Below, one piece after another: positions 1 to 15,901 of a stretch of DNA of 64,000 nucleotides. The stretch's first letter is position 1. Each line of letters starts with the position of its first letter. A model generated the notes under the pieces. It was not told the origin of the DNA. It worked only from the letters and a program-made list of their open reading frames with translations, and ran no database searches. The stretch is taken from the sequence record DRR378314_468; one strand, written 5' to 3'. The translations under genes and the position numbers were made by a program.

Positions 1-36
1 TTGCAGAGCTCTGCCTAGCCACTCGGCCACGATGCC
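1..36 (-). tRNA. tRNA-Cys(GCA), 5' half; truncated by the window start
   Basis: Reverse complement reads GGCATCG TG GCCGAGTGGCTAGGC A GAGCT CT GCA A: acceptor 5' strand, D-arm and anticodon stem with CU-GCA-A loop. Confidence 0.92.
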
Positions 37-46
37 AATTGGATCG

Positions 47-54
47 CAAAGCTA
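47..54 (-). promoter_or_regulatory. Bacteroidota sigma-A -7 box (TAGCTTTG) for tRNA-Cys
   Basis: Exact TAnnTTTG match 10 nt upstream of the tRNA 5' end. Confidence 0.6.
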
Positions 55-112
55 AAAATATTTTGCGAATATTCAGTTTTTATGATAATCTAAATATCTA
101 GCAAAATTATTG

Positions 113-184
113 AGGCATCGGGTGGACTCGAACCACCATAAAAATCCTTGCGGGACTTTGTCTAACCAATTCGACCACAATGCC
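113..184 (-). tRNA. Atypical tRNA-Cys-like gene (GCA anticodon, U73, but C33 and C32-G38)
   Basis: Reverse complement GGCATTG TG GTCG AATTGGTT AGAC A AAGTC CCGCAAG GATTT TTAT GGTGG TTCGAGT CCACC CGATGCC T folds into a full cloverleaf with GG in the D-loop and TTCGA in the T-loop. Confidence 0.8.
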
Positions 185-201
185 GTTCGTAATGGTATTT
201 T

Positions 202-230
202 CAAAATTATTAAAAGATTAACAGTTTCAA
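202..230 (-). promoter_or_regulatory. Sigma-A-like promoter (TTG-N18-TAATTTTG) upstream of the tRNA-like gene
   Basis: + strand CAAAATTA at 202-209 and CAA at 228-230 match the Bacteroidota -7/-33 consensus on the minus strand. Confidence 0.5.
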
Positions 231-248
231 CGGTTAAGATATTGTCAT

Positions 249-605
249 TCAACGAGTAATTGCGAGTTTTACCGAAACGCTTTCCACATCGCCACCAATT
301 GGCGGATTTATTTTGGAAACTTCGACTTCAACCTGGGTTACTTCTATGATTTCCTCGAATATACGATCAATGATTCTTTTGGCTACATGTTCCAATAGAT
401 TGGAACGTACCGTCATTTCTTCTTTTATAATGTTATTGAGATGGACATAGTCCACTGTTTCGCTCAGTTGGTCGGAGGCGGCAGGTTGAGAAAGGTCTGT
501 GGTAATTTCCAGGTCCACCCTGTAATCGCTGCCAATGAGCATTTCCTCCTTTAAACACCCGTGGTTGGAATGTATCCTAATGTTTTTTAACCTAATTTTT
601 CCCAA
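249..605 (-). CDS. folB: Dihydroneopterin aldolase
   Basis: HGC..EE...G..Y.VD, SD.L.ETVDY, LLEHVA and K.NPPIGG motifs; 118 aa; TTG start with TATTTTTG box at 626-633. Confidence 0.93.
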   Translation of the reverse strand: MGKIRLKNIRIHSNHGCLKEEMLIGSDYRVDLEITTDLSQPAASDQLSETVDYVHLNNIIKEEMTVRSNLLEHVAKRIIDRIFEEIIEVTQVEVEVSKINPPIGGDVESVSVKLAITR

Positions 606-650
606 AGCTCTTAGTTACGAAAGGGCAAAAATAGGGTAAAACGCATTAAA

Positions 651-1610
651 TCAATACATACATCTACAGTTACTTATTCCTTGGAAAAGATCCATTCCCA
701 CGGTTAGTACGTGGGTACCGGTACTATACCCTAATATTTCGTTGGTGATAACTTGATAGGAATAGCCAAAATAGAAGTTGCTCTTTTTAAAACCGGCTAT
801 CGGAGCAATGTAAAGCGGTTTTCCCAATTGATCGTTCAAGAAACGGTAGGTAACACCTAAATAGTAGTAATCTTCAAAGTCACGAATACGGAATTTTGTG
901 TTCAAATCAGTAACCGAACGTCCATCGCTTTCAAACCATTGAAAGAACACCGAAGGTTCAATTTCCAATTTACTGTTCTTGCTCTTGGAAAAGCTGTAGC
1001 CTGTGTAAGCGTAGTAATTTCTAAGTTTATTGGGTTCAATACGGATAATATCAGTATTAAAATTAGATAGGTCCTTGTTAAGTATGTTGCCAGCATTCAA
1101 GCTAAAAAAGAACTTATCGTACCGGTAAAGGACTCCCAAATCAAAGTTATGATTGGTTGTGGCCTTATCATCTGCCGGCAATTGACCGTTGTTCTCTTCA
1201 AACTGTTCTACATCTATTCGAAATTGGTTAAAGTTGTAAGAGATACCGAAAGACATGAAAATATCATCATACCTGTCCAATGTCAAATGGTGGGCAAATG
1301 ATACTCTGGCTCCCCGTTGTCTGGTAAAACCATTACTATCATTGTACAATAGCATTCCTACTCCAGACCTGTTCCCAATCCGTGCATCCGCGGCCAAGGT
1401 TTGGGTATCGGGGGCATCTTCTATTCCGACCCATTGGGTAAGACCGTTTAGGCGCACCTTGATATGATCACCAATACCAGCATAAGTCGGGGACATTAAA
1501 AATGGGTTGTCCGCAATATACTGGGATAGTTGGGGTACGGTCAACTCTTGTCCCCTGGCACAAAGTGCCAAGGAAACAAATAGGATAGTTGAATATACTT
1601 TTTTTAACAT
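651..1610 (-). CDS. sprF: T9SS PorP/SprF family outer-membrane barrel, SprF
   Basis: Signal peptide, PxYAG, QWVG...AP.T and terminal G.H...vG motifs; lies directly after sprB. Confidence 0.88.
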   Translation of the reverse strand: MLKKVYSTILFVSLALCARGQELTVPQLSQYIADNPFLMSPTYAGIGDHIKVRLNGLTQWVGIEDAPDTQTLAADARIGNRSGVGMLLYNDSNGFTRQRGARVSFAHHLTLDRYDDIFMSFGISYNFNQFRIDVEQFEENNGQLPADDKATTNHNFDLGVLYRYDKFFFSLNAGNILNKDLSNFNTDIIRIEPNKLRNYYAYTGYSFSKSKNSKLEIEPSVFFQWFESDGRSVTDLNTKFRIRDFEDYYYLGVTYRFLNDQLGKPLYIAPIAGFKKSNFYFGYSYQVITNEILGYSTGTHVLTVGMDLFQGISNCRCMY

Positions 1611-1630: not shown

Positions 1631-4600
1631 TTAATTTCGGTATAATGTAAAGTGTCCCACAAACTCTCTGTCGTCTTGTTCACCTTTAAGCTGAACAACG
1701 TACCAATAGTCTCCGGTAGGCAATGGTTTTCCATCGTAATTACCGTCCCATCCTTGCACGTTCCGGTCCATCACTTCCACTACTCTACCATAACGATCAT
1801 AAACCTTAATTAGTACGTCAGGGAACCCTTCAATGTTGTCAGGTATCCATATATCGTTAAGACCATCGCCATCTGGTGTAAAGAAATTAGGGAACTCAAC
1901 ATCTATGAACTCCATAAATATTTCAGCTGTGGCCTCACATCCGTTTTGATCTACCACGGTAACGGTATACGTATCGGTTCTATTGATGTAGAAAGTGTTG
2001 TCACTTCCGTTATCCACGTCATTGAAGTAGAAGGTATAATCTTCCACGCCTCCTTCAGCTATAGCTGTAATCTGGTTGATATTATTGTTCTCCAATGTTA
2101 AAACCAGAGGTTCATAAGCTTCAATGGTAAAGTCATACGTCGTCATACATCCATTGGCGTGTGCAATGGTGATGTAGTGGTCACCTGGCGCCATGTTTCT
2201 ATAATCGGCCGTCAATTGCATGTCTGCTGGATCGGTTGAATCCAACGCATACATTAGATCACCAATAATGGATTCGTCTTCGAACACAATATCCAAATAG
2301 TTATCAGGGATATTTCCGGTACACTCGTAAACAGGTGTTACCGTCGCCGCAAGATTAACTCCCGGCTCTATTTCCACGATTACGTTGGTTTCACAACCTT
2401 GGGCATCCCGTACAAATACGACGTGGGTACCTGCAGTCAGGTCTTGGAACAAGAACTGATCTTGAACAAAGTTTGCATCTGCACTGGAGTTTAAGCTTGT
2501 TTCGTAAGGTGCCGTTCCTCCAGAGATTTGCACTTCGAACGAACCATCACCGCTTTCAAAACATACCTCGTCCATAATGTTGATAGCTTCGGCCACAACA
2601 GGTTCTGGTTGGTTGATCTCAAATTGGAAGGTGATGAAACATCCATTCACATCTTGAGCGATCACATCATAGATGCCGGGTTCTAGATCAGTAAATGTGT
2701 TCGTCGTATCAAACTGATCTAGATTGGGTGAAATTGCGTAAAGGATTTCACCTGTACCACCCGACACTTCAACAGTAATAGTACCGTCGTTCATTCCTGA
2801 ACAAGTAATATCTGTAAATTCTTCTCTTTCCACTACCAATGGTTCTGGATCAACTATGGTAACTACAGGAGAGACCTCAACACAGTCTTCACTGGTTACT
2901 CGTACATAGTAATCACCAGCCAATAGACCACTGAATGTTCCATTGGTTTGCGGACCATCAACTAGGTTGGTCAAGGCCGCATCGCTGAACAATTCATAGT
3001 TGTAGTTGCCAAGACCACCTGTTGCTTGTGCAATTATGGTTGCAGATGCTTCTCCCATACAGTTTATTATGGCCGCTGAATCATCTATTTCCAACATCAA
3101 TTCTGGCACTTCATCTACGGTAACTTGGTTGGATATCAATGCATCACAACCATTGGCATCTCGCACGTAATACTGGTATGCTCCTGGTCCTACATTAAAG
3201 GTATGAGTATCTCCACCGCTCATTGCAGTAAAGGTGATTCCATCGGTACTATAGAAATATGGTGCTGTACCACCCGCTGCGCTCAACATGATTTCTGCAT
3301 CGTTGTTACACGTCATGGCACTTACTTGAACAAGACTTGCCATTACCTCTGTTGGTTCTGTAATGGTTACCCTTGGGGTTTCCATACCACAGTTCCAACC
3401 ATCGGAAACCGTGATGCTATAAATCCCGGCACCAAGTCCATTGAAGGTATTGTTGCTCTGCTCACCTGTGGTGAACACGATGTTGTTACCTGATGGGTCG
3501 TAGTAGTTTAACTGGTAGACATAAGAACCACTTCCTCCAGCAACATTATCTGCCCAAACGGAAGCGCTTTCGGCTCCGTAGCATAATAGATCAATTGGAG
3601 CAGCATCAATATCTGCAGTAATTGGGTCTGGCACTTCCAAAGGCAATCCTCTATCTTCAAAACAACCACCATCATCGGTAACTCTTACAGTATATGTTCC
3701 GGCTGATAATCCTGTGAACACATAACTATTTACATTGTTCATCGTGTAAACCTCTGTTGTTGTGGTATTGGTCAATACAATATCGTAAGGGGCATAACCT
3801 CCTGTTGGATTGATCAATATCTCACCTTGATCATTGGTACAGGTTACATTAGCCACTTCTTGTGGGGTATAATCCAAAGCTGAACTAGGAGAAACAATGG
3901 TTACTGTGCCAGATACTGCTGGACAGAACGGTGCACTGGTTCCCACAATTTCCACATAGTAGTTTCCACCGATCAAAGCGGATGTTGGGTCTGGAATTTC
4001 GAATGGATTGGCACTTGTGTTGCCGCTTCCTGTTAGTCCAGTGGTTGTTCCGTTTGCGTTGAACACTTCGTAGTCATAAGGACCAACATATCCGGTTACA
4101 TCAATTTCGATGGTTCCTGCATCACCAAAGCAGACTGCTGGCGCTGTTGCAGTGGCCACCACATCAATGGTATCGAAAGGCGCAATGGTATGTGTTGTTT
4201 CTACGTAACAACCTGTTGTATCATTGGTTGCCCTGAAGGTATAGCTGCCTGGTTGTGTCAAATCAAAAGTTGCCGTAGTCGCTGTTGAAGCCGTTATAGC
4301 TCCAAAAGGATTTCCTGCTGGCAACAATTCGAAGGTATAGGTATCACCTCCAAAGGTTTCCGTTACATTCAATGTTACTGTTTCAGGGTTGTTACAGGTA
4401 ATCGCCACAACTTGATTGACATCCAGCGTAAAGGTATTCAACGGTTGCACCGTAATACTATCTGGGTATTCACATCCATTGGCATCTCTAACCACATAGT
4501 TGATGGTTTGTGCACTTCCATTGTCAACGATATCGAAGGTAGCATCGGAAGTGAAGCTGTTTCCGTTAAAGCTATAGAAATAAGGAGTTGTTCCACCTGT

Positions 4601-7600
4601 TGCTGTTACGGTTATGGTTGACTCATCAACAGAGTTACTTGGAGCACACACAAAATCAGTTGCGGTTGCAGAAGCATCCAATACGGTTGGTTCGCCAACA
4701 GTGGCATCAAAAGTATCATCACATTCCCTAGATGAGATAACACGTACTCGGTAATCGCCGGCTGGAAGATTATCAAATACCAGACTTGAATGAGCAAATC
4801 GATAAGGATTTACCAAGTCGGACATTTGATATAGTTCATAAGTATAGACAGGATCAACAACAGTTGCTGGGTCCATTACTACGGTTAAACTTCCATCGGA
4901 ACCTCCAAAGCAGCTCACGTCATCCACAATAACATCATCGATAACAGGATCCACCTTATCATCCAACTCTTGTGTAACAACATAAGTACAAGGTTCCGTG
5001 GTGTCCAAGTCTGTAATGGTAAATACATATGTTCCTGGTTCGGTCAGGTTAGTGAAAATACCGTCATTGTTGGTAATCACGGTTGTCGAAATTGGAGAAA
5101 TAGTACTGTATTCAAGATTAGCCGAACCACCAGAAACATTAATGGTGATTTGCCCTCCTGGATCCATTGTACAATCAATAGGCTTAACCACAGTAGCATT
5201 GGCTGTCATAGCATCCGTAAGCACTACTGGACCAACTGTTGTGTCACAGCCCCATTGGTCTATAATATAAACCTCATAGGTTCCAGCACCGAGACCGGAG
5301 AATATGGTACTTGTTTGTGGAGAACCTACATTAGATCCATTTCTGATCAATTGATATGTATAGTTGCTTCCTTGTCCACCACTTACAGGGTCGGTTGCGG
5401 GGATGCCCACAACTTCAATTTCTCCTTGCAGGTTGGTACAATTAGCTTGATTGATTTGCAAATCAGCAAGAATAGGATCAGGAATGGTCAGGTCAACATC
5501 CAGTAACTGCGTGGCACATTCTTCTTGATCCATGATCCAAACCTCATAAGTACCTGCCGTAAGGTTTTCGAACCTTGGGGTGGACACATAGTTGGATGGA
5601 TCGTTGGGATCAGGGTTTGGTGTGGTGCTCACATAGTAGGAGTATCCACCCCATCCACCTTGCACATCAACAACTTCAATGATACCATCGTTTCCTGGGT
5701 TACAGGTTATGGGGGTAACTTCAGTATTTCCTGTAATGGCTGCTGAAGGTCCTGCGATGTTGAAGGCTTCTATGTTTGTACATTCTGGGAATGCGTCTTG
5801 TGATATTTCAACAATATAACTTCCGGCTGGCAACGAAATTGGAGCCGTAGGACCGGTTGTACTGGAATTTCCATTGGTAACTGAAATATCGTCAAGTCTA
5901 TCGTTAGGGGTTCCATTGGTATCATAAATGGTCCAATCGAATCCATTGGAATATGTGGCATCCAAAAGTTCAAAAGTAACTTCACCAGTGGCGGTACCAT
6001 AACAGATGACATCACTTACCACATTTACATCTATGGTAAAGGTATTTGGATCTTCAATGGTTTCCGAGGCAGTCACGGTACAACCCGTATCGAGGTGTCG
6101 AACCAAGAAATTGTGTGTTCCTGCGCTCAATCCACTGAATATGTTGGATGCTTGCCAAGAAGTTCCATTGTCAATACTGTACTCAAAACGAGTTGGGTCT
6201 CCTGCTGTTGAGGTTACGGAAATGGTTATTTCTCCATCGTTACCTGGACTACAGCTTATAGGATTGGTTATCGAAGCAGTAGCATTGGTTATTTCATCAA
6301 AAGGAGCAATAGTTGCAGTAGTTGTTCCCAAACAGCCATTGTCATCATATACATTGATGGTGTAGTTGCCACCAGCAGTATTTGTTTCGGTATAAACGGG
6401 ATTACCTCCATTTTGAACCACTACGGAACCAGCATCGTTGATAAACTCATAACGGATATAGTTTCCACTTCCACCGGTTATAGACCCTGTATCCACGGTA
6501 ATGGTTGCATTGTTGGTATTGTTGCCTGCGGTACAGGCGAATTCTAGTACGCTTGCATTCACGTTTGCTATTGCCGCAGGTTCTGAAATGACGATAGAGA
6601 AAATGTCGTCAAAACAACTGTTGATTCCCGTTCCACGAACATCATATGTTCCCGCAGGAAGGTTTTCAAAAGTGTTTCCGTTCAACACGGCACCAACAGG
6701 CATCGGAGTAAGGGTATAAGTCAAAGGCCCAACCCCATTATCTATTTCTGTTAGTGTAATGCTTCCATCGCTACCTCCGAAACAAGTTACATCTATATGT
6801 GTTTCGGTGAAGCTTGGCAGTGGAGCATCAGGAACATCTATAGTGATTGTTTGAGGACAGTTTGGTGGTGCTGTGCCCATATCAAACACAATGACATCGT
6901 AGCTTCCGGCTGCTGTAGCTCCTGTCCAAGTGAATTGATTGAATGCGTCTAAAGTAAGAGCAGTTCTAGTAACGTCATTGACTCCAGTGCCAGGACCATC
7001 GATCCTATATTCGTAGTTTCCTGAACCAGAAATTACTTCTATCAATATTTCTGCATTTGCAGCTGCACCTAGCTCACAATCCAAGGCGACAGTTTGCGTT
7101 ACCGTGAATTCAAGAGGCGGAGCAATATTGAATGTATCCGTATCGGCACAACCATTCAAATCTCTAACAGCTATAGTCTGGCCCGAGCCCGAGCTTAAGC
7201 CTGAAACTGTGTATTGGTTGCTGCCATCAAAAGTAAAGTTTTGATATGCTGATCCATTCACACTGATTTGGAATGGGGACATGGCCACGGCAGGATTGTC
7301 CAAAGTAACCAATACCTCGAACAGACCTTCGTCTACACACTCATCGACAACTGTTAAGGTTATTTCGGGTGTTGGATCTTCGTCAACCGTAATAGGTCTT
7401 TGAAAGATACAGCCGTAGTCATCCATTACATAAACAATGTAGTCGCCAGCTTCAACATTGGCAGAAGTACTGCTTGTCCAACCAGCCGTAGCTGCGGTAG
7501 GAGCAGGAGCGGAATCCAACAAATATTGATAGGTATATGGGGCTGTACCAAACCTTCCTGTTGCTGTGATTACACCCGCATTTGGGTTACAGTTATCATT

Positions 7601-10600
7601 TTGTGGGCTTGCCACATCCAAATCCAAAGCATTGGCAGATTCACGGATAGTAAATTCACCACCGTTTACGGAACACCCGTTGTTTGGTCCACCTACTTCA
7701 GAAAGCAATAGGTAATATTCTCCTGGAGGGAGTGTTGCAAAATTGTCAACAGTCACCGAAGTTGGCGTATTAACCGTTGCAGTTCCACTATGTCCTGTTG
7801 AAACATTGGATTGTCTGTTGAAAATTTCGTAGTCCACTGCGGTTGCTCCTGCGTCGAATCCTGTGAACGTAAATGAAATGTTTCCATCAGCAGAACCAGT
7901 ACAACTCACGTTGTTCACGGCATCCAAATTCGCTGTCATGTTAGATGGCGTATTGATGGGTGCCGCCGCCTCTTCAAAATAGTAGCAATTGGTGGTAAGG
8001 TCATAAACCACAAAGGTATACGTGATACCAGGGGTAAGGCCGGTAAAGGTAGCTGTATCTCCTCCAACAGTATCAGGGGTCTGATAGGTAGTTGAATAAG
8101 GTGCGGTATAGTTTTCCAAAATCGCAAATTCATAGTTTCCGCTTCCTACGGCAGAACCTACCGTAACAATTGCTGTACCCCCAGAAACGCAATCTGAAGT
8201 GGCGGTGCTTACATCGATATCAAGGTCATTTGGCGGTGATGCGATGATTTCCGTCGTAAACGAGGCACAACCATTGGCATCAACTACATCAACCTGATAA
8301 ATACCAAACTCCAATACAGTGAATGTATGATCTCTTGCACCGGAAGTAGTAGTGTAGGTTTGTGGAGCAATACCATTATTCGCCGTTAATATGTATGTGT
8401 ATTCAGCTGTTCCGCCAGAAACACCAGAAACCGTAATGGAACCAGGATTGGTAACACCAGTACCGGTATCACAGGTAATAGGAACATCTGTTGTAGTATA
8501 GGTAATCGGGTTGGGTTCGGAGATTACAACAGGGAATGGCACAGATACGCACCCTTTATCATCGGTTATCGTAACTTCATAAGAGCCGGCAGGTAATCCT
8601 GTGGTTTGACTTCCATAATTGGTTGGACCACTAGTTTCAACAACATTGATGGTATAAGGAGGCACTCCTACGGAAGTATCGATTACCACATCCAAGGCAC
8701 CTGTACTTTCCCCATGACATAAAATGTCGGTCGGTGTAACGTTACTGATTACGGGCGGTACAGCAGGAGTTATTACAATGCTGCTGGTTACCACGCTACA
8801 GGTTGGTGTGGATGTATCGGTTACACGGAAAATGTAGGTGCCATCCGTATTTGTATTGAATACGTTACCAGTAAATCCAGTGTTATTATAGGTAGTTCCA
8901 CCATCGTTGGACCATTCGTAGGTGTATGATCCCGAACCTCCATTTGCATTTATGGTAATGGTTGCATCAGCCAAACAGGTTAAATCATTGTCCAAGAAAG
9001 CAGAAGCTGTCAGTGCTGGGTTTATAGTGGCAGTATCCGTAGCAGTACAACCATAGTCATCACGAACATCGATAGTGTAAGTTCCTGCAACTAAGTTTTC
9101 AAATGTATATGTTGTATCAGTTGATGGAGAAGGCGTAATCCATGCACCACCGTTCAAACGGAACTGATAATTTCCGTTTCCGTCGGTTACGTCCACTTGG
9201 ATACTTCCATCATTGTTGCCACTATAACATGCTGTTGGAGTCAAGTCAAAGGCAATAGTTGCTGGCGGGTCAACGGTTATAACTGAGGTGGTATCCTCGC
9301 AAGAATTAGTGTCTGTTGCTCTTACTACATAATCACCTGCCGCTAAACCGGTAAATACATTGGATGATTGGAATGCGGTAATTACTGCACCCAAATCGTC
9401 TTCCAATTGATATTGATAAGTTGGGGTTCCGTCTGTAGCTGTAGCAGTAATTGTTGCACCACCATTGGTACAGGTAAGCTCATTGGTAATGGATGCTGTA
9501 ACATCCAATACATCCGGTTGGGTCAATGTTTGATTCAACACAACTGAACATGAAGGGTCTCTTAAATCGACAATTTCAATGGTATGGGCACCTGCTGCTA
9601 AACCATTAACGGTAATCGGACTTGCAAATTGAGCAGCGGAAACAGCCCCACCATCAACTTGAAAGGTAAATCCGATTGCTGGGTCAAAGTTTTCGGCCTC
9701 AAAAGTGATGGTTCCATCGGTATCTCCGTTACAAGTAATATCGGTATAAGCGGTAATGGCTCCATCAAAAGCATGGCCATCCTCAACATTCACATCAAGC
9801 GTGATGAATCCACCACAAACTTCTGGAATTTGAAAAGCTTCAATATCGTCTATAGCTATATCATTACCATTGATTACGGCCGAATTTGTTCTAATAACGA
9901 TATCCAGGTTCGAATTTGCCCCTGGGTTGAGGTCAACAGAATAATTATGCCAATCATTGGCCCCCGTGTTTTTGGGCACGCTTCCCGTGGTTGTACTTGC
10001 AATGATGTTCCCTCCAGCATCCACCAATTGGATTTCAATGGAAGGATCACCTCCACCCGTTCCGCTTCTTAATAAGTTGAAAGCGTGAAGAGAGACGGTA
10101 ATATCTCTGTTTGGTATTACCTCTACACCTGTTTTTTGGTAAACGATACCGCCAACTCCGGCCACCCCACCCACATTGATGGCGAGGAATCTTCCGCTGG
10201 CCAAACCAGTATGATCATTAGGGCTTAGCCAAGAACCATAGGGATTTACAATATTTTGTGTTACGGAATACTCCCCATCTTGAATATGAGTGTCCGTACC
10301 AAAACCGCATAGGCTTGCGCTACCATCTTGTGGTTCGTAACAATAGGCAGGATCAATTTCTGAAATACTTGTATTTGGTCCTACTCCAAAATTTTCGGAA
10401 AGCAAAATACTTGGACTTGGCGCCGAATTGCTTACGTAGTTTACGGTGATGGTGTGGCTTCCCACAGGTACATCTCCGAACACGTTTGAAGTGTTTGGCG
10501 TATTTGGATTACCGTCAATCTCGTAAGTGTAATCAAAATCTGTACTATTAGGTGTAACGGTAATAGTTCCCTCACCATCACACTCATAATCAATAGCAGC

Positions 10601-13600
10601 TGTTGCGCTTGGAGGTGTTGGTTCTGGGTCTATCGTCACGTTCATTGGATAAGTACACAGGTTGGCATCCCTTATGTAAAGGGTGTGTGTACCCGGAAGC
10701 AAATAACCAATTGAAGTAGTATCGTAAGTAGAACCTCCATCAAAACTATATTCGTATGGGGCTGTTCCACCAATGGCATTGGTAATACGCACCTCAGCAC
10801 CCATTCCTGGATAGCATTCCGCCAAAGCGGTAACTGCTGCGGAAGCTGAAAGCGTCAATGGCTCGTTAATAGCGTAAATTTCGGTTACTTCACAGTTATT
10901 TGCATCCCTTACACGAATATTGTAGCTGCCTGCGGGAAGGTTTGCAAAAGTATTTGATGTTTGATAAGTAGCACCGTTGTTGATACTATAGGAATATGGC
11001 GCTTCACCACCTGTTGGTGTTATGGTAATTTGTGCCTGTGATTCACCGCTACAAAGGATATCGGTATTGGTGACAGAAATTGCCAATGGATCATCTTGAA
11101 CAATGGTAATGTCGTAAGTAGCCTCACAATAATCGGTACCACCCGCATTATCCCTTACATAAACATCGTAATCTCCGACACTTGTTACGGTAATTGGATT
11201 GGTTGGTGAAAAATCTCCTGCAGTTGGCGTCGCTCCATCTGCGACAACGGCATATACATAGTTTCCATCTCCACCGGCGGCTGAAACAGTTATATCGGTG
11301 TCTGTTCCACAAGCTGTAATGTTCGGGGCCGAAGCGACCAAACTTAATTCAGGGTCGATAGTTATGGATGCTGAATCGGTACAATCATTTCCGTCTCTAA
11401 CATTAATGGTGTACGTTCCAGAACCCAAACCAGTAAATACATTGCTGGATTGGAAAGGCCCTCCATTCAAATTGTATTCATAGTTTCCGTCTCCACCAGA
11501 AGTAATGTTCGCTGTCAGGGTCAAGCCTGTGGCATCATCATAACAAATATTGTTGGGAACAATATCGAGCACTGGTGCAATGGCTTCGTTAATTACAAAG
11601 TCATCCGTGACTACACATCCATTGGCGTCGGTTACGGTGAACTGATAGGTTCCGCCAATGTCCAGTCCGCTGAACAAACCACTTGTCTGCGAAGCAGGCA
11701 GAGTGTAACCCCCTGGACCGGAAATAATTTCGTACGTATAGCTTCCCCATCCACCAGAGGCAGCAATGTTAACCGAACCATCGGCCAAACAAGTTGGTTG
11801 GGTAAGGGTTATAGGTGCTGTTATAGCTGCAGGAGGAGCGGCGATTGTAACATCGGCCGTATCCGTACAGTTGGTAAAATTGTCAGTTACTGTTATGGAG
11901 TAGGTTCCTTCGGCCAATCCGGTAAGTGATATGGTTCCGTTGGTTTCCGCAGTTCCTGAAAAATTTGCAGGACCTGTTACGGAATAATCATAATCTGTAT
12001 TGAAGTTGTTTACGGTGTATTCGATTTCACCGTCGTTATCACCAAAACAAGTAATATTGCCCACCAATTGACCAGATACTGAAATTTCTGTTACCGGGGC
12101 AATAGTGAAACTTTCATCATAAAAACAACCATCATTATCAGTAACCCTGAACATATAAGTTCCAGGTGCCAATCCGGCAAAGGTGTTGTTGTTTCCATTG
12201 TTTACAGCGCTTCCTGCAGGGGATATAAGCTCATAAACCAAGTTGGGCTCACCTCCTGTTACGGACAAGGTCACATCTGAAACAAATGTTGGACAAAGCG
12301 GGTTGGTCGCTGTAAAATCGATATCCGTTGGAGGGTCCAAAGGATCTATGGTGATGGCATTGGTTGTGAATATACATCCTAAATCATCTCTAACGGTAAC
12401 CGTGTAGGTTCCGTCAGTAAGGTTGTTGAACGTTGATGCACTACCAAAGTTCACACCATCGATACTGTATTCATAAGGTGCTGTTCCGCCCGTTACATTT
12501 TGAGCTTCTATAATACCGTCTTGCAAACAAGTGTAATCTTGTGTCAATACGGCATCAGCATCCAAAGCGAAGGATGGTGCAGAGATACTGGCATATTCAA
12601 AGTAATCACAGTCTGCGCTGCCTTTTCGTTGGTAGATGACTACTGCATAATCACCATCAGTCAAACCTGGAAAATAGCCTGATGTGTTGGTAGCCAAGGC
12701 AGTGGTTAGATCGTAGTTGTTCTCGTCGAAAGTTGTTGCATCAAACAAATAGTAAGTGAGTTGGAAGCCATTGTCGTCGACCAAATTAAAGGTGATCGCC
12801 CCAGAAGCATCACCATAACAAACCACATCGGTAACAGTAGTCGCGTTATACTCTGCTGCCGGCCTAAATTCAATAGAAACTGTGTTTGATATATCGTAAC
12901 AGTTATTTCTGTCCACAACCACAAAAGTGTAATCTCCTGGATCATAGATATCAAAAATTTGACTGGTTTGATATTCCGAAGCAGGGATATCGTTTACTGA
13001 TGGATAAGATAGTTGGGTAACGCCGTTCTCATCAACATAAGACCAAATGGCATAGACATGCGGGGTTTGACCTCCTGAAGATTCCATTTGAATGTTACCT
13101 TCCCTGCAGGTGATATGCTGGGATATTCTTGCATTAAGTTCAAGGTCGGTCAAGTCGTTAATGGTAACTTGCTCGGTGTAGGCACAACCATCGTCCGTGG
13201 AAACGGCAATATCGTATACGCCATCGCTAAGGTTTTCAAAGGTATAGTTGTTGTCGTTGGACGGTCCAAAAGTATCAACTACAGTACCACCAGAAGAGAT
13301 TTCATAATAGTATTGTGCTTCTACGTTGAGCACAGAAATGGCAATTTCACCCAATCCGTTGCAGTCGGTATCTTGAGGGACTACATCAACTTGAAAATCC
13401 CTGTCCAAAATGCCAATGTTATCCAACACAAATACACAACCATCGGCAACGCCCTGCTGTCTCATTTCTACCATATAGGCACCGTTGTTGGCGATGTCGA
13501 AACTTGGATTTGAGCTATAAGGAACAACAACATTCCCAGTGGATTGATCTACAAGTTGAAACTCGTAGGTCAACGGCATATTGGTTACGGTAATATTTCC

Positions 13601-15901
13601 GTCCGTGTCGCAAATAATATCTCTAGAGGTATATTGCGGGTCAAGCGGGTTTTTGTAAATATCGAAATAAAACCTACTAAAACACCCATTTTGATAGTTG
13701 ATTACCAAACGGTATTGACCGTCATTTTCGGCTAAAAAGTCGTTTCCTGTATCAACTGTGTTCCATGTACAGCCAGCGTTGGTGTTGGCACAGCCATCAA
13801 CAGATGCGCCACAACTTGTTTCATCCAATTGTTCCCAAACAATACTTGTGGCATCCGGGATGTTTATTTGAATGAGCTCGGTATCGTTAAGTCCACACAA
13901 GAATATTTCCGGAAGCTCACTACCATCGTTGGGGCATATTTCAATATCACCATCAATAGTATTGGAGGTGTCGTTTATCAATGCGGTGATCGGGTTGGAT
14001 TGTACTGAACCGAACAACTCCACCGTAATAATTTCCTGAAAATCTTTGCAAGGGTCTTCAACTTGCTTGTCCACCAAATAGGTGCCGATGTCGCTTACCA
14101 AAAGTGTACTTGGGTCGTTATCGGCGTCGGCATCTGTAATGACGGTATCCGTTCCTAGATCGATTTGATTGTTTCCGTTCTCATCACGGTACCATACGTA
14201 GTTATCAAAATTGTCACCTGCATCCAGCAACACATTTTCGCCACATAATTGAACGGTTCTAGTAAAACTACAAGCACTTAGGTCGTCCAACAAAAAGTTA
14301 GTGGCCCCCGGTGTTCCAAAACCACAATCATCAAAATCATATACACTGGGGTCATCCGTAATCTGGTTAGGGTTGATAATACCCTCATATGTGGAATAAG
14401 CCAAATTCTGAATGACATCGGTACATGCATCCACAAAATCGAAGCAATTTTGAGCCACTTGTACCCGCATTCTAATTTCTGAAAAGGGGTCTCCTACCTC
14501 GATCAGATTGTCTGGAATTGTGAATATAACCTCTCTTGAAACAGGATCGTAGGTATATGTTACTCCAGTTGGAACGGTAATGGATGTTTCGTCTAAGTCA
14601 ACATTTACGGGAAGGACATCTCTAATGGTATAATTTGTGGCATCGTCGTTTCCGTTATTTTGAAAAGAAAGGACATAGTCCAAGTATTGCCCAAGGTTTA
14701 CACCCGCTCCTGTAATATCATTTCCGCCAATGTCCTCAACGGTTTTTTCCAGTATCATATTGGGCTCTATTACTTCAATACCGAAGGTTACCAAAAAGGC
14801 GCCAAAACCATCTCCTTGCGTATAAAGTCTAAGGGTGGCATCGGTCTCTCCATTGGCTATAATACTGTTGGAGGGGTTGTTGATCTCGAAGATATCGGCA
14901 TCGTACCCCAAAGTATTGGTGGCATAAATGTCTCTGTTCGTAACATCTGCACCATCAATGGTTATGTTGGAATTAAAAAAGTTGTTAGCGGGGTTGGATG
15001 CGTTCGAAAGGTTGGTAAAACCAGGATTCATAGGTGTTTCAATACGAAAAGCATCACCGGTTATCCCTCTATCTCCCTCAACAACACTGGCGCCCAAACG
15101 CGCTCTTACGGGACCTGCGGGAATTGTGTTAAACCCAGAAACATTGATGTCAGCACTTGAATTTCCGGAAACCCCTGCGTATCCATCAAAAACAGAAATA
15201 TATTTCCCGGGAAGGTTCGGGTTTTCATAAATAACAACTAAGGTCCATCCACCGGCACCACCAACGCTTCTACCTCTTGTTGCCCTGATATTGGCAACAG
15301 TATATTCACCTGCAGGATTAGCCAAGGCTTGGAGTTGATTGGTAACATTGGCAAAACAAGTATAAGGCGAATCTTTAAAATTGACGTCATCATGAATAAC
15401 GGCATCCTCCTCTCCCACAGGGTCAGGATTGTTGTCGGCAACGATATCGATGTAGCTTCCCCCTGGAACCTTAAATTTTATCTCCCTGAAATCCAATCTT
15501 CTTGAATCACTGCTTGGAAGGCTAGAGATTTGACTATTGTTCATCACCTCTTGTTGATAATTGGCGGACCAGTATAGCCCTGCCCAATAGATTCTTGAAC
15601 AATCAGGAAGTGTCAATGTAGAGCTACTGGAGCTAAATGTTGATGGGTCCCCATCAATATCAATGTAGTCCCTGTGAAAACCATTGTTGTTGCTGGAACC
15701 ATTATAGGGGTCGTTGGCGGTATTGCTGCCGTCCACCCTATTTAGGATAGAGTTGGCCAAAAAGGTATAATCCCCCTTAATGTTTATATAGGAATTGTCC
15801 AACCTAGGGGTAAAAGGAACTTCTACCTGAGCGTTAACCGTAGAGCTAAGAAGCCCTATGCCCAATAGGCAAACTAAAGATTTTAGTAAAAGTTTGGTCA
15901 T
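1631..15901 (-). CDS. sprB: Gliding motility adhesin SprB (SprB repeats, T9SS type B C-terminal domain), 4756 aa
   Basis: Dozens of 'C...G.I.....GG..PY.Y...F..L.AG.Y.V.V.D..GC' repeats; C-terminal PNFFTPDGDGLND.W...IYDRYGR...WDG.Y.G..LP.GDYWY...GHFTLYR. Confidence 0.9.
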   Translation of the reverse strand: MTKLLLKSLVCLLGIGLLSSTVNAQVEVPFTPRLDNSYINIKGDYTFLANSILNRVDGSNTANDPYNGSSNNNGFHRDYIDIDGDPSTFSSSSSTLTLPDCSRIYWAGLYWSANYQQEVMNNSQISSLPSSDSRRLDFREIKFKVPGGSYIDIVADNNPDPVGEEDAVIHDDVNFKDSPYTCFANVTNQLQALANPAGEYTVANIRATRGRSVGGAGGWTLVVIYENPNLPGKYISVFDGYAGVSGNSSADINVSGFNTIPAGPVRARLGASVVEGDRGITGDAFRIETPMNPGFTNLSNASNPANNFFNSNITIDGADVTNRDIYATNTLGYDADIFEINNPSNSIIANGETDATLRLYTQGDGFGAFLVTFGIEVIEPNMILEKTVEDIGGNDITGAGVNLGQYLDYVLSFQNNGNDDATNYTIRDVLPVNVDLDETSITVPTGVTYTYDPVSREVIFTIPDNLIEVGDPFSEIRMRVQVAQNCFDFVDACTDVIQNLAYSTYEGIINPNQITDDPSVYDFDDCGFGTPGATNFLLDDLSACSFTRTVQLCGENVLLDAGDNFDNYVWYRDENGNNQIDLGTDTVITDADADNDPSTLLVSDIGTYLVDKQVEDPCKDFQEIITVELFGSVQSNPITALINDTSNTIDGDIEICPNDGSELPEIFLCGLNDTELIQINIPDATSIVWEQLDETSCGASVDGCANTNAGCTWNTVDTGNDFLAENDGQYRLVINYQNGCFSRFYFDIYKNPLDPQYTSRDIICDTDGNITVTNMPLTYEFQLVDQSTGNVVVPYSSNPSFDIANNGAYMVEMRQQGVADGCVFVLDNIGILDRDFQVDVVPQDTDCNGLGEIAISVLNVEAQYYYEISSGGTVVDTFGPSNDNNYTFENLSDGVYDIAVSTDDGCAYTEQVTINDLTDLELNARISQHITCREGNIQMESSGGQTPHVYAIWSYVDENGVTQLSYPSVNDIPASEYQTSQIFDIYDPGDYTFVVVDRNNCYDISNTVSIEFRPAAEYNATTVTDVVCYGDASGAITFNLVDDNGFQLTYYLFDATTFDENNYDLTTALATNTSGYFPGLTDGDYAVVIYQRKGSADCDYFEYASISAPSFALDADAVLTQDYTCLQDGIIEAQNVTGGTAPYEYSIDGVNFGSASTFNNLTDGTYTVTVRDDLGCIFTTNAITIDPLDPPTDIDFTATNPLCPTFVSDVTLSVTGGEPNLVYELISPAGSAVNNGNNNTFAGLAPGTYMFRVTDNDGCFYDESFTIAPVTEISVSGQLVGNITCFGDNDGEIEYTVNNFNTDYDYSVTGPANFSGTAETNGTISLTGLAEGTYSITVTDNFTNCTDTADVTIAAPPAAITAPITLTQPTCLADGSVNIAASGGWGSYTYEIISGPGGYTLPASQTSGLFSGLDIGGTYQFTVTDANGCVVTDDFVINEAIAPVLDIVPNNICYDDATGLTLTANITSGGDGNYEYNLNGGPFQSSNVFTGLGSGTYTINVRDGNDCTDSASITIDPELSLVASAPNITACGTDTDITVSAAGGDGNYVYAVVADGATPTAGDFSPTNPITVTSVGDYDVYVRDNAGGTDYCEATYDITIVQDDPLAISVTNTDILCSGESQAQITITPTGGEAPYSYSINNGATYQTSNTFANLPAGSYNIRVRDANNCEVTEIYAINEPLTLSASAAVTALAECYPGMGAEVRITNAIGGTAPYEYSFDGGSTYDTTSIGYLLPGTHTLYIRDANLCTYPMNVTIDPEPTPPSATAAIDYECDGEGTITVTPNSTDFDYTYEIDGNPNTPNTSNVFGDVPVGSHTITVNYVSNSAPSPSILLSENFGVGPNTSISEIDPAYCYEPQDGSASLCGFGTDTHIQDGEYSVTQNIVNPYGSWLSPNDHTGLASGRFLAINVGGVAGVGGIVYQKTGVEVIPNRDITVSLHAFNLLRSGTGGGDPSIEIQLVDAGGNIIASTTTGSVPKNTGANDWHNYSVDLNPGANSNLDIVIRTNSAVINGNDIAIDDIEAFQIPEVCGGFITLDVNVEDGHAFDGAITAYTDITCNGDTDGTITFEAENFDPAIGFTFQVDGGAVSAAQFASPITVNGLAAGAHTIEIVDLRDPSCSVVLNQTLTQPDVLDVTASITNELTCTNGGATITATATDGTPTYQYQLEDDLGAVITAFQSSNVFTGLAAGDYVVRATDTNSCEDTTSVITVDPPATIAFDLTPTACYSGNNDGSIQVDVTDGNGNYQFRLNGGAWITPSPSTDTTYTFENLVAGTYTIDVRDDYGCTATDTATINPALTASAFLDNDLTCLADATITINANGGSGSYTYEWSNDGGTTYNNTGFTGNVFNTNTDGTYIFRVTDTSTPTCSVVTSSIVITPAVPPVISNVTPTDILCHGESTGALDVVIDTSVGVPPYTINVVETSGPTNYGSQTTGLPAGSYEVTITDDKGCVSVPFPVVISEPNPITYTTTDVPITCDTGTGVTNPGSITVSGVSGGTAEYTYILTANNGIAPQTYTTTSGARDHTFTVLEFGIYQVDVVDANGCASFTTEIIASPPNDLDIDVSTATSDCVSGGTAIVTVGSAVGSGNYEFAILENYTAPYSTTYQTPDTVGGDTATFTGLTPGITYTFVVYDLTTNCYYFEEAAAPINTPSNMTANLDAVNNVSCTGSADGNISFTFTGFDAGATAVDYEIFNRQSNVSTGHSGTATVNTPTSVTVDNFATLPPGEYYLLLSEVGGPNNGCSVNGGEFTIRESANALDLDVASPQNDNCNPNAGVITATGRFGTAPYTYQYLLDSAPAPTAATAGWTSSTSANVEAGDYIVYVMDDYGCIFQRPITVDEDPTPEITLTVVDECVDEGLFEVLVTLDNPAVAMSPFQISVNGSAYQNFTFDGSNQYTVSGLSSGSGQTIAVRDLNGCADTDTFNIAPPLEFTVTQTVALDCELGAAANAEILIEVISGSGNYEYRIDGPGTGVNDVTRTALTLDAFNQFTWTGATAAGSYDVIVFDMGTAPPNCPQTITIDVPDAPLPSFTETHIDVTCFGGSDGSITLTEIDNGVGPLTYTLTPMPVGAVLNGNTFENLPAGTYDVRGTGINSCFDDIFSIVISEPAAIANVNASVLEFACTAGNNTNNATITVDTGSITGGSGNYIRYEFINDAGSVVVQNGGNPVYTETNTAGGNYTINVYDDNGCLGTTTATIAPFDEITNATASITNPISCSPGNDGEITISVTSTAGDPTRFEYSIDNGTSWQASNIFSGLSAGTHNFLVRHLDTGCTVTASETIEDPNTFTIDVNVVSDVICYGTATGEVTFELLDATYSNGFDWTIYDTNGTPNDRLDDISVTNGNSSTTGPTAPISLPAGSYIVEISQDAFPECTNIEAFNIAGPSAAITGNTEVTPITCNPGNDGIIEVVDVQGGWGGYSYYVSTTPNPDPNDPSNYVSTPRFENLTAGTYEVWIMDQEECATQLLDVDLTIPDPILADLQINQANCTNLQGEIEVVGIPATDPVSGGQGSNYTYQLIRNGSNVGSPQTSTIFSGLGAGTYEVYIIDQWGCDTTVGPVVLTDAMTANATVVKPIDCTMDPGGQITINVSGGSANLEYSTISPISTTVITNNDGIFTNLTEPGTYVFTITDLDTTEPCTYVVTQELDDKVDPVIDDVIVDDVSCFGGSDGSLTVVMDPATVVDPVYTYELYQMSDLVNPYRFAHSSLVFDNLPAGDYRVRVISSRECDDTFDATVGEPTVLDASATATDFVCAPSNSVDESTITVTATGGTTPYFYSFNGNSFTSDATFDIVDNGSAQTINYVVRDANGCEYPDSITVQPLNTFTLDVNQVVAITCNNPETVTLNVTETFGGDTYTFELLPAGNPFGAITASTATTATFDLTQPGSYTFRATNDTTGCYVETTHTIAPFDTIDVVATATAPAVCFGDAGTIEIDVTGYVGPYDYEVFNANGTTTGLTGSGNTSANPFEIPDPTSALIGGNYYVEIVGTSAPFCPAVSGTVTIVSPSSALDYTPQEVANVTCTNDQGEILINPTGGYAPYDIVLTNTTTTEVYTMNNVNSYVFTGLSAGTYTVRVTDDGGCFEDRGLPLEVPDPITADIDAAPIDLLCYGAESASVWADNVAGGSGSYVYQLNYYDPSGNNIVFTTGEQSNNTFNGLGAGIYSITVSDGWNCGMETPRVTITEPTEVMASLVQVSAMTCNNDAEIMLSAAGGTAPYFYSTDGITFTAMSGGDTHTFNVGPGAYQYYVRDANGCDALISNQVTVDEVPELMLEIDDSAAIINCMGEASATIIAQATGGLGNYNYELFSDAALTNLVDGPQTNGTFSGLLAGDYYVRVTSEDCVEVSPVVTIVDPEPLVVEREEFTDITCSGMNDGTITVEVSGGTGEILYAISPNLDQFDTTNTFTDLEPGIYDVIAQDVNGCFITFQFEINQPEPVVAEAINIMDEVCFESGDGSFEVQISGGTAPYETSLNSSADANFVQDQFLFQDLTAGTHVVFVRDAQGCETNVIVEIEPGVNLAATVTPVYECTGNIPDNYLDIVFEDESIIGDLMYALDSTDPADMQLTADYRNMAPGDHYITIAHANGCMTTYDFTIEAYEPLVLTLENNNINQITAIAEGGVEDYTFYFNDVDNGSDNTFYINRTDTYTVTVVDQNGCEATAEIFMEFIDVEFPNFFTPDGDGLNDIWIPDNIEGFPDVLIKVYDRYGRVVEVMDRNVQGWDGNYDGKPLPTGDYWYVVQLKGEQDDREFVGHFTLYRN

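Follow-up and report, generated by a model that had tools for sequence, protein, structure and literature searches.

Results

Organization of the tRNA-Cys locus

The present study analyzes an additional gene for cysteine transfer RNA (tRNA-Cys) near the start of sequence record DRR378314_468, a stretch of 64,000 nucleotides (nt) that was analyzed whole and is referred to here as the window. The gene has the anticodon GCA, carries C where U is expected at position 33 of the anticodon loop, and is followed by a canonical tRNA-Cys with U33; the two are called the C33 copy and the canonical copy below. The C33 copy belongs to what is apparently an undescribed, recurrent class of extra C33 tRNA-Cys found in bacteria and viruses. 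ARAGORN made a single tRNA call in the window, a tRNA-Cys(GCA) at 112-184 on the minus strand, and Rfam RF00005 matched end to end at 113-184 (-), scoring 45.8 bits (gathering score 29; E 6.7e-08). The window start truncates the canonical copy. A genome that is 99% identical over window positions 1-700 (G001) stands in for that of the window, and its order is folB, C33 tRNA-Cys, a 76-nt spacer, canonical tRNA-Cys (loop CUGCAAA) and a terminator hairpin. The full canonical gene lies there at L001 2165-2236, with the hairpin and a T run 3' of it. An initial annotation of the window had described a 72-nt cloverleaf 76 nt upstream of the normal tRNA-Cys and had proposed an Infernal-type search; ARAGORN, the full-length Rfam match and the layout in G001 all agree with that description. 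The features, all on the minus strand, are as follows.

113..184 (-): extra tRNA-Cys(GCA) with C33, from ARAGORN and Rfam RF00005; 72 nt up to U73, no encoded CCA
147..153 (-): anticodon loop C32 C33 G34 C35 A36 A37 G38, from the sequence; C33 is window position 152
202..230 (-): promoter-like motif of the C33 copy, from the sequence; TTG (230..228), N18, TAATTTTG (209..202)
37..112 (-): 76-nt spacer between the C33 and canonical tRNA-Cys, from the sequence; contains the -7 box of the canonical copy, TAGCTTTG, at 54..47
1..36 (-): first 36 nt of the canonical tRNA-Cys, from the sequence; truncated by the window start, with loop positions C32 U33 G34 C35 A36 A37 visible
249..605 (-): folB (dihydroneopterin aldolase), Pfam PF02152, E 1e-31; upstream context, outside the element
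651-1610 (-): PorP/SprF gene, from open reading frame (ORF) annotation; upstream of folB
1631-15901 (-): SprB-repeat protein of 4756 amino acids with a CHU_C type IX secretion sorting domain, from ORF annotation; upstream context

The SprB-repeat protein and PorP/SprF, a gliding or adhesin module, immediately precede folB and the tRNA pair, an arrangement conserved across the clade.

Fold, identity elements and anticodon loop

The RNA of the C33 copy reads GGCAUUG UG GUCG AAUUGGUU A GAC A AAGUC CCGCAAG GAUUU UUAU GGUGG UUCGAGU CCACC CGAUGCC U and forms a standard 7/5 cloverleaf with a 4-nt variable loop. Its stems are complete (acceptor GGCAUUG/CGAUGCC; D stem G10-C25, U11-A24, C12-G23; anticodon stem AAGUC/GAUUU), and it has U73, A15 with U48, G18G19, a canonical T loop, A37 and the anticodon GCA. 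The cloverleaf, GCA with U73, and G18 G19 with the T loop UUCGA expected of a tRNA-Cys are all present, and the departure is at the U33 expected of a 7-nt anticodon loop, which is C33 in 14/14 relatives. The two paralogues are identical at 51/72 aligned positions, and their acceptor stems differ at one pair only, U6.G67 in the C33 copy versus C6-G67 in the canonical copy. The canonical copy in G001 has C11-G24 and G15/C48 where the C33 copy has U11-A24 and A15/U48, so that every difference listed in the initial annotation, together with the shared GCA, U73 and near-identical acceptor stem, was recovered.

The loops read CCGCAAG in the C33 copy versus CUGCAAA in the canonical copy. It had been suggested from the sequence of the window that a C32-G38 pair could close the C33 loop to 5 nt, and when the anticodon arm is folded thermodynamically on its own this pair has a probability of 0.94, leaving a predicted 5-nt loop. 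A GNRA reading, in which C33-G38 would close a GCAA tetraloop, is less well supported: its probability is 0.06 against 0.94 for the 32-38 pair, and variants with the loop GCGCAAC are unable to form the tetraloop.

Positions 32/38 were tallied in distinct sequences. Among 37 C33 sequences of the GGCAU type (the Flavobacteriaceae clade) they are C/G in 23, U/A in 5, and G/C, U/G and C/A in 3 each, compared with C/A in 9/9 canonical sequences of the same type. In the 58 C33 sequences from other lineages they are C/A in 28, C/G in 9, U/A in 8, G/C in 4, U/G in 4, C/U in 3, and U/C and G/G in 1 each, and canonical copies of those lineages have C/A in 15 and U/A in 1. C33 is the shared feature of the class; a 32-38 pair that closes the loop and the replacement of A38 often accompany it, most strongly in the clade of the window. 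The determinant recognized by MiaA is A36A37A38, and MiaA is present in 5/5 carrier genomes; loss of A38 should remove this determinant.

The substitution is specific to cysteine. In G001, 37 Rfam tRNA hits correspond to 36 distinct tRNAs, of which 35 have U33, and C33 occurs only in the extra tRNA-Cys, which also has the lowest score of all 37 hits (45.8 bits). Genes with such low scores are easily dismissed as pseudogenes, which makes the class relevant to annotation. An equivalent pattern for C33 tRNA-Phe matched 0/201 genomes of the family, its U33 control matching 5/5; in the same 201 genomes C33 tRNA-Cys was found in 10.

Conservation and selection among close relatives

With the 72-nt sequence as query, a BLAST search of 401 genomes from the family, Flavobacteriaceae, returned 15 matches, 14 of full length and one (L016) partial and without a tRNA call, and the same tandem tRNA-Cys pair was present at 14/14 full-length loci. 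In the alignment of these 14 (A1), C33, G34, C35, A36, A37, U73, G18, G19 and T53-A57 are invariant, and 12 distinct rows have CG at 32/38 in 8, UG in 2, GC in 1 and another combination in 1. When the cloverleaf is taken together with the 32-38 pair, 99.2% of pair cells are paired across the 14 relatives, a figure that falls to 22-48% when stem partners are slid. Compensatory (two-sided) changes occur in 8/21 stem pairs, and the observed covariation score was reached by 0/500 shuffles.

The C33 copy is the more variable of the two. Comparing 13 of the 14 genomes, with L012 excluded for its different length, 25/72 columns vary in the C33 copy versus 4/71 in the canonical copy, mean pairwise identities are 0.881 and 0.975, and the rate of the C33 copy is about 5 times that of its neighbor. 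The C33 copy is thus faster-evolving yet under clear structural selection, with C33 as fixed as the anticodon. Together these patterns show that, as judged from its sequence, the second tRNA-Cys gene is functional and inherited vertically, with an intact cloverleaf and elbow and a promoter box of its own. The initial annotation had suggested that the gene was not a decaying pseudogene, and the invariant C33 (14/14), the compensatory pairs (8/21) and the promoter box (10/14, below) all sustain this. It had also proposed as checks stem covariation among Flavobacteriaceae orthologues, which is evident in the pairing and compensatory changes above, and to conservation of C33 and G38, of which the first holds throughout and the second does not, since position 38 varies.

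Promoter box and RNA traces

The motif TAnnTTTG, which we take to be the Bacteroidota -7 promoter consensus, occurs at 10/14 loci in the 45 nt preceding the C33 copy, against 0.6 expected from shuffles, and upstream of the canonical copy at 13/14 loci, against 0.65 expected. The TTG-N18-TAATTTTG motif that had been noted ahead of the C33 copy is indeed present at 230..202, and its box is the one kept in 10/14 relatives. In some relatives (L009, L012, L013) the spacer contains a hairpin that resembles a terminator. Another TAATTTTG box immediately follows the 3' end of the C33 tRNA at window 101-112 (-) (CUAUAAUUUUG) and is not conserved in relatives.

Public RNA libraries provided low-depth contigs only, which are uninformative on level, strand and ends and may include DNA carry-over. 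An estuary metatranscriptome (run X14, depth 5) yielded a 130-nt contig that covers exactly 185-278 and has adaptor sequence at both ends; it ends one base upstream of the tRNA 5' end, as expected of a leader released by RNase P and read through from folB. In the transcriptome of a relative (run X16, depth 2.9), a contig over window 1-164 takes in the 3' portion of the C33 copy, with C33 itself, continues through the spacer into the canonical copy and shows no difference in 113-164; it could derive from precursor RNA or from DNA. Two further runs match window 1-76 only and then diverge (X15) or match 1-30 only (X18). The X14 and X16 contigs are hints of transcription at most.

Distribution among bacteria

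The family was scanned with a pattern combining C33-GCA-A37, the T arm and GCCU, for which a reversed control pattern gave 0 matches. C33 tRNA-Cys was found in 23/401 genomes, representing 19/302 genera, and in 22/344 high-quality genomes. The canonical copy was also present in 22/22 carriers examined, at the same locus in 17 and elsewhere in the genome in 5 (the 23rd carrier is G111). A scan of all prokaryotes, with one genome per species, gave at least 120 matching stretches. Among the 120 listed, 81 hold a C33 tRNA-Cys called by ARAGORN (in 29 of these the locus also contains a U33 copy), and 39 are without such a call. The 81 loci among the matches listed span at least 9 named phyla:

Bacteroidota, 34
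Pseudomonadota, 16
Chloroflexota, 6
Actinomycetota, 5
Planctomycetota, 4
Verrucomicrobiota, 4
Bacillota, 4
Acidobacteriota, 3
Armatimonadota, 1
unlabelled, 4

A covariance model built from 92 tRNA-Cys sequences was searched in 10 whole genomes from outside the family. Canonical U33 tRNA-Cys was also found in 8 of them (Afipia, Bradyrhizobium, Paenibacillus, Micromonospora, Actinoplanes, Rhodovulum, and metagenome-assembled genomes (MAGs) from Phycisphaerales and from a deltaproteobacterium), and only the C33 copy was found in the other 2, the MAGs G409 and G411. With a pattern accepting U33 or C33, 88/101 genomes of the family of G411, Opitutaceae, matched, with C33 in 3, of which 2 also had a canonical copy; in the family of G409, 62/81 matched, with C33 in 2, of which 1 also had canonical copies, a tally that includes one U33 row each from two genomes flagged as unpublished (G513 and G536), which enter into no other result. 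No secure case of C33 as the sole tRNA-Cys was found among the genomes checked, the only candidates being these two MAGs; wherever it could be securely checked, the C33 copy is additional to a canonical U33 tRNA-Cys.

Copies with C33 and with U33 from 12 lineages were placed in a tree, which is weak at 73 columns. The main Flavobacteriaceae C33 copies form one clade in it (support 99/96), adjoining their own canonical copies, and the C33 copy of one genome is placed with the U33 copy of that genome. The C33 copies of Aquimarina and Fulvivirga cluster separately, as do those of Nitrobacteraceae in a group of their own (100/99), suggesting that the variant has arisen, or been kept, several times.

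Several extra tRNA-Cys genes had features of their own. Nitrobacteraceae have two or three dispersed extra copies without G18G19 (D loop AAUGUCUA), as in Bradyrhizobium sp. (G404; L145, L148, L153) and Afipia (G402; L146, L149), and one of them has G33 (loop CGGCAAA); the neighbors of these copies are carB, a gene for an S-adenosylmethionine (SAM) methyltransferase and a ferritin-like gene. Paenibacillus sp. S-38 (G403, L152; also L062) has a tandem extra pair, both members with C33 and one with G37 for A37 (CCGCAGA), separate from the canonical copies, which sit in rRNA-linked tRNA clusters. In Opitutaceae there is another type of tRNA-Cys paralogue, with the T arm GUUGGUUCGAUUCCAAC and the 3' end CCCCCGCCU, that carries U33 or C33 depending on the genome (G485, G492, G504 versus G411, G415, G459). 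The pattern scan also picked up by chance three tRNA-Cys(GCA)-like genes (L019, L116, L033) of 90-96 nt with a long extra arm, resembling the selC* type.

Viral tRNA arrays

A complete scan of IMG/VR contigs with the C33 pattern returned 61 stretches, of which 50 hold a C33 tRNA-Cys, in 26 distinct sequences. The U33 pattern matched at least 119 stretches of viral contigs, with U33 tRNA-Cys in 78 among the matches listed. The C33 tRNA-Cys is the sole C33 tRNA in viral arrays of 14 (L244), 9 (L248), 9 (L258) and 7 (L262) tRNAs, and also in an array of 15 (L277), where it lies beside a U33 tRNA-Cys. About 30 related contigs of about 100-150 kb from one metagenome have four tRNAs each, for Met, Gln, Arg and, with C33, Cys. 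Its position inside phage tRNA arrays points towards use in translation. Three arrays have C33 in further isotypes, affecting 17 (L269), 6 (L280) and 2 (L278) other tRNAs. The first of these, an 8-kb locus of IMGVR_UViG_3300035564_000075, has 29 tRNAs with C33 loops such as CCUGCAA, CCCAUAA and CCGAAGA, and such a set with widespread C33 suggests that C33 tRNAs are workable in translation.

Discussion

Few nucleotides in biology are as conserved as U33, and a single tRNA-Cys species serves most bacteria. The C33 tRNA-Cys is a concrete, genetically tractable case for asking what U33 is needed for, and for a second question, whether tRNA-Cys comes under attack in microbial conflicts or acts outside translation. 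No description of a bacterial or phage C33 tRNA-Cys was found in the literature searched, with supplementary tRNA tables lying outside that search, nor is the class listed in the available portions of reviews of odd tRNAs and of tRNA identity.

A possible protected spare

Our tentative preference, held with less than even confidence, is that the C33 copy is a chargeable and decoding-competent spare tRNA-Cys whose altered loop lets it escape some factor acting on the canonical loop. The single cysteinyl-tRNA synthetase (CysRS) would charge it and the ribosome could still use it, and the altered loop, with C33, the frequent closing 32-38 pair and the loss of A38, would be a poor substrate for a factor that recognizes or cuts the canonical tRNA-Cys loop. 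Candidates for this putative factor are nucleases of the anticodon loop, toxins and modifying enzymes, and the C33 copy would then be a protected spare for the only cysteine decoder of the cell. This is preferred as the best fit to several observations taken together: an elbow and T arm that are intact, the occurrence in phage arrays, the precedent of a yeast tRNA with C33 (below) and the recurrence for cysteine specifically. As would be expected of a nuclease-evading spare, the loop is substituted relative to a co-resident canonical tRNA with the rest of the molecule intact, and the variant is also phage-borne. Cleavage at this place in the loop has been described for the contact-dependent inhibition toxin CdiA-CT(EC536), which cuts tRNA between positions 32 and 33 according to the accessible text of the source (PMC11724271).

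A broader extension, which we regard as possible but doubtful, is that the C33 tRNA-Cys is the trace of a hidden, widespread conflict over the single cysteine decoder, in which a putative nuclease, toxin or modifier attacks the U33 loop and the escape variant has been repeatedly fixed in at least 9 phyla and in phages. M. tuberculosis VapC4 reportedly targets tRNA-Cys.

Several observations weigh against a protected spare. Decoding could suffer from the predicted closure of the loop at 32-38 and from the missing A38, and the faster evolution of the C33 copy suggests a minor role. The factor that would act on canonical tRNA only is putative, and so is decoding by the C33 copy; a tRNA-Cys-specific nuclease or modifier for these taxa was not found in the literature searched. 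A stem-loop with U33C was cleaved like wild type by the gamma-toxin of K. lactis, as reported in the part of the source available, so C33 is no general shield. Judging from similarly partial sources, the tRNA targets of ApeA are Pro, Thr, Met, Ser, Gln, Tyr, Val and Gly, the strongest being without Cys, and DARNA cuts the anticodon loops of most tRNAs. C33 was the sole tRNA-Cys in no complete genome checked, and the two MAGs with only a C33 copy have relatives with canonical copies. The same Opitutaceae paralogue type is found with U33 or C33. Finally, the retention of a protected spare by a chromosome, as opposed to a phage, is left unexplained.

A possible retuned isodecoder

The C33 copy could instead be an ordinary isodecoder that has been retuned, with C33 and the 32-38 pair, and the absence of N6-isopentenyladenosine at position 37 (i6A37), lowering or altering ribosome binding to give different kinetics, accuracy or control of expression, and with no enemy factor involved. 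The 32-38 pair is a feature that tunes the affinity of tRNAs for the ribosome, and Watson-Crick combinations at these positions occur in normal decoders, as with A32/U38 in tRNA-Pro(GGG) of G001. The identity elements, elbow and T arm are all canonical, and the copy's own promoter, joined in some relatives by its own terminator, would make separate regulation possible. C33 is tolerated in yeast tRNA-Leu(GAG), as far as the accessible text goes (bioRxiv 10.64898/2026.02.20.707122), and a U-to-C change is structurally tolerated in another U-turn, again from a partly available source (PMC6061696). If C33 were near-neutral, however, it should drift between U and C, yet it is as invariant as the anticodon in 14/14 relatives while positions 32 and 38 vary, and retuning leaves unexplained why the variant recurs for cysteine only, in many phyla and in phage arrays. 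On balance we consider this reading rather unlikely.

A possible role outside the ribosome

The initial annotation had proposed a chargeable but translation-poor tRNA-Cys serving as a cysteinyl donor, a decoy or a regulator, and a non-ribosomal role of this kind, whether as donor, as decoy or sponge, or as a sensor or regulator of cysteine supply, now appears improbable. In its favor, the CysRS identity set is retained while the loop is de-optimized by C33, the predicted 5-nt loop and the loss of A38, and the copy evolves faster than a main decoder. The extra copies of Bradyrhizobium and Afipia, which do lose G18G19 and one of which has G33, are reminiscent of non-proteinogenic tRNAs.

The donor, decoy or regulator role itself gained no support. 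Clustering of neighborhood ORFs around C33 copies revealed no shared partner gene; the neighbors are lineage-specific housekeeping genes, such as carB, a SAM methyltransferase and ferritin in Nitrobacteraceae, a metallo-beta-lactamase (MBL)-fold protein, ketoacyl synthase and acyltransferase in Fulvivirga and Aquimarina, and histidine kinases in others. No second CysRS was found in the 5/5 genomes searched, each of which had one strong PF01406 hit (G001 has a single CysRS), with weak extra hits of 31-33 bits in G402, G404 and G406. T-box elements (RF00230) were found in 0/5 carrier genomes, the control being positive in 5 known genomes. None of five families of aminoacyl-tRNA-dependent transferases was associated with C33 tRNA-Cys in a coarse comparison of 23 carriers with 23 non-carriers of similar size and completeness, hand-picked and not matched for kinship: the LanB/PEARL N-domain (PF04738) occurred in 0/23 carriers versus 3/23 non-carriers, FemAB (PF02388) in 9/23 versus 6/23 as weak partial matches with none in G001, the C-domain of aminoacyl-phosphatidylglycerol synthase (aaPGS; PF09924) in 1/23 versus 1/23, cyclodipeptide synthase (CDPS; PF16715) in 0/23 versus 0/23, and leucyl/phenylalanyl (L/F)-transferase (PF03588) in 23/23 versus 23/23. 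Loss of G18G19 of the donor type was not seen in the clade of the window, where these residues are invariant (14/14) and the T loop is canonical. In Fulvivirga and Aquimarina the T stem of the C33 copy is that of the canonical copy, so there is no visible sign of avoidance of EF-Tu. Presence in phage arrays fits translation better, and the yeast precedent, as far as its source is available, points the same way.

Possible editing or decay

Post-transcriptional conversion of C33 to U or a U-like base would make the C33 copy an ordinary isodecoder, and editing of C to U or to pseudouridine is known in bacterial anticodon loops (position 32 of Vibrio tRNA-Tyr). We think this very improbable, as the X16 contig reads C33 unchanged, a weak point given that it is a contig and may be precursor RNA or DNA, and as the covariation of positions 32 and 38 would be left unexplained. 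That the gene is a neutral or decaying duplicate, an assembly error or an integration-site remnant is scarcely credible despite its lowest Rfam score in G001 and its faster evolution than the canonical copy, because C33 is found in independent assemblies from 19/302 genera of the family sample, compensatory changes maintain every stem, the core of the loop does not vary, relatives share the promoter box, neither gene is truncated and the neighboring annotated ORFs include no mobile-element gene.

Comparison with known systems

The staphylococcal non-proteinogenic tRNA-Gly used by Fem peptidyltransferases has changes in the D loop (G18G19) and in the T stem, which is weakened for EF-Tu binding, and keeps U33. 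The C33 tRNA-Cys resembles it as an extra isoacceptor in which synthetase identity is kept and near-universal nucleotides are altered, but retains G18G19 and the T loop and alters the anticodon loop instead, and FemAB-like hits do not track it.

The tRNA-Other of Bacillus cereus is a pseudo-tRNA with no action in translation, according to the accessible part of its description (PMC3399842). Like the C33 copy it is a chromosomal tRNA-like gene, and a non-translational regulatory role has been proposed for it; from the same partial text, it flanks a genomic island and has a narrow range, whereas the C33 tRNA-Cys has a clean isotype, lies beside a canonical gene and is widespread.

The selC* tRNA-Cys and allo-tRNAs also include, in the text available, additional tRNA-Cys with U73 and GCA alongside a normal one, and GCA and U73 are cited there as the major CysRS identity elements (PMC7609411). 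Those tRNAs differ in having 8/4 or 9/3 acceptor/T arms and long variable arms, some of them with CysRS* and SelB*, whereas the C33 copy is a 7/5 cloverleaf with a 4-nt variable loop in a genome with a single CysRS.

A natural C33 in yeast tRNA-Leu(GAG) has a minimal functional effect according to the accessible text of a preprint, which also cites that G33 in Candida tRNA-Ser lowers decoding (bioRxiv 10.64898/2026.02.20.707122). The yeast tRNA is, as described there, a non-essential elongator with C for U33 beside another tRNA for the same codon, much as in the case of the C33 copy; it is a single eukaryotic case, whereas the present class is bacterial and viral, specific to cysteine, spread over many phyla and often provided with a Watson-Crick 32-38 pair.

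Finally, phage tRNAs have been proposed to evade tRNA-targeting defences through mutations in the anticodon loop (PMC10264068; PMC11555353; PMC11464382, each as far as available), and a term search of the text of the first for U33, position 33 and Cys gave no mention. The C33 variant differs from these in being chromosomal, vertically inherited over 19/302 genera of the family sample and derived from the host's own tRNA-Cys. It is like them in being a full, chargeable-looking tRNA with an altered loop kept beside a canonical one, and the C33 tRNA-Cys itself occurs in phage arrays.

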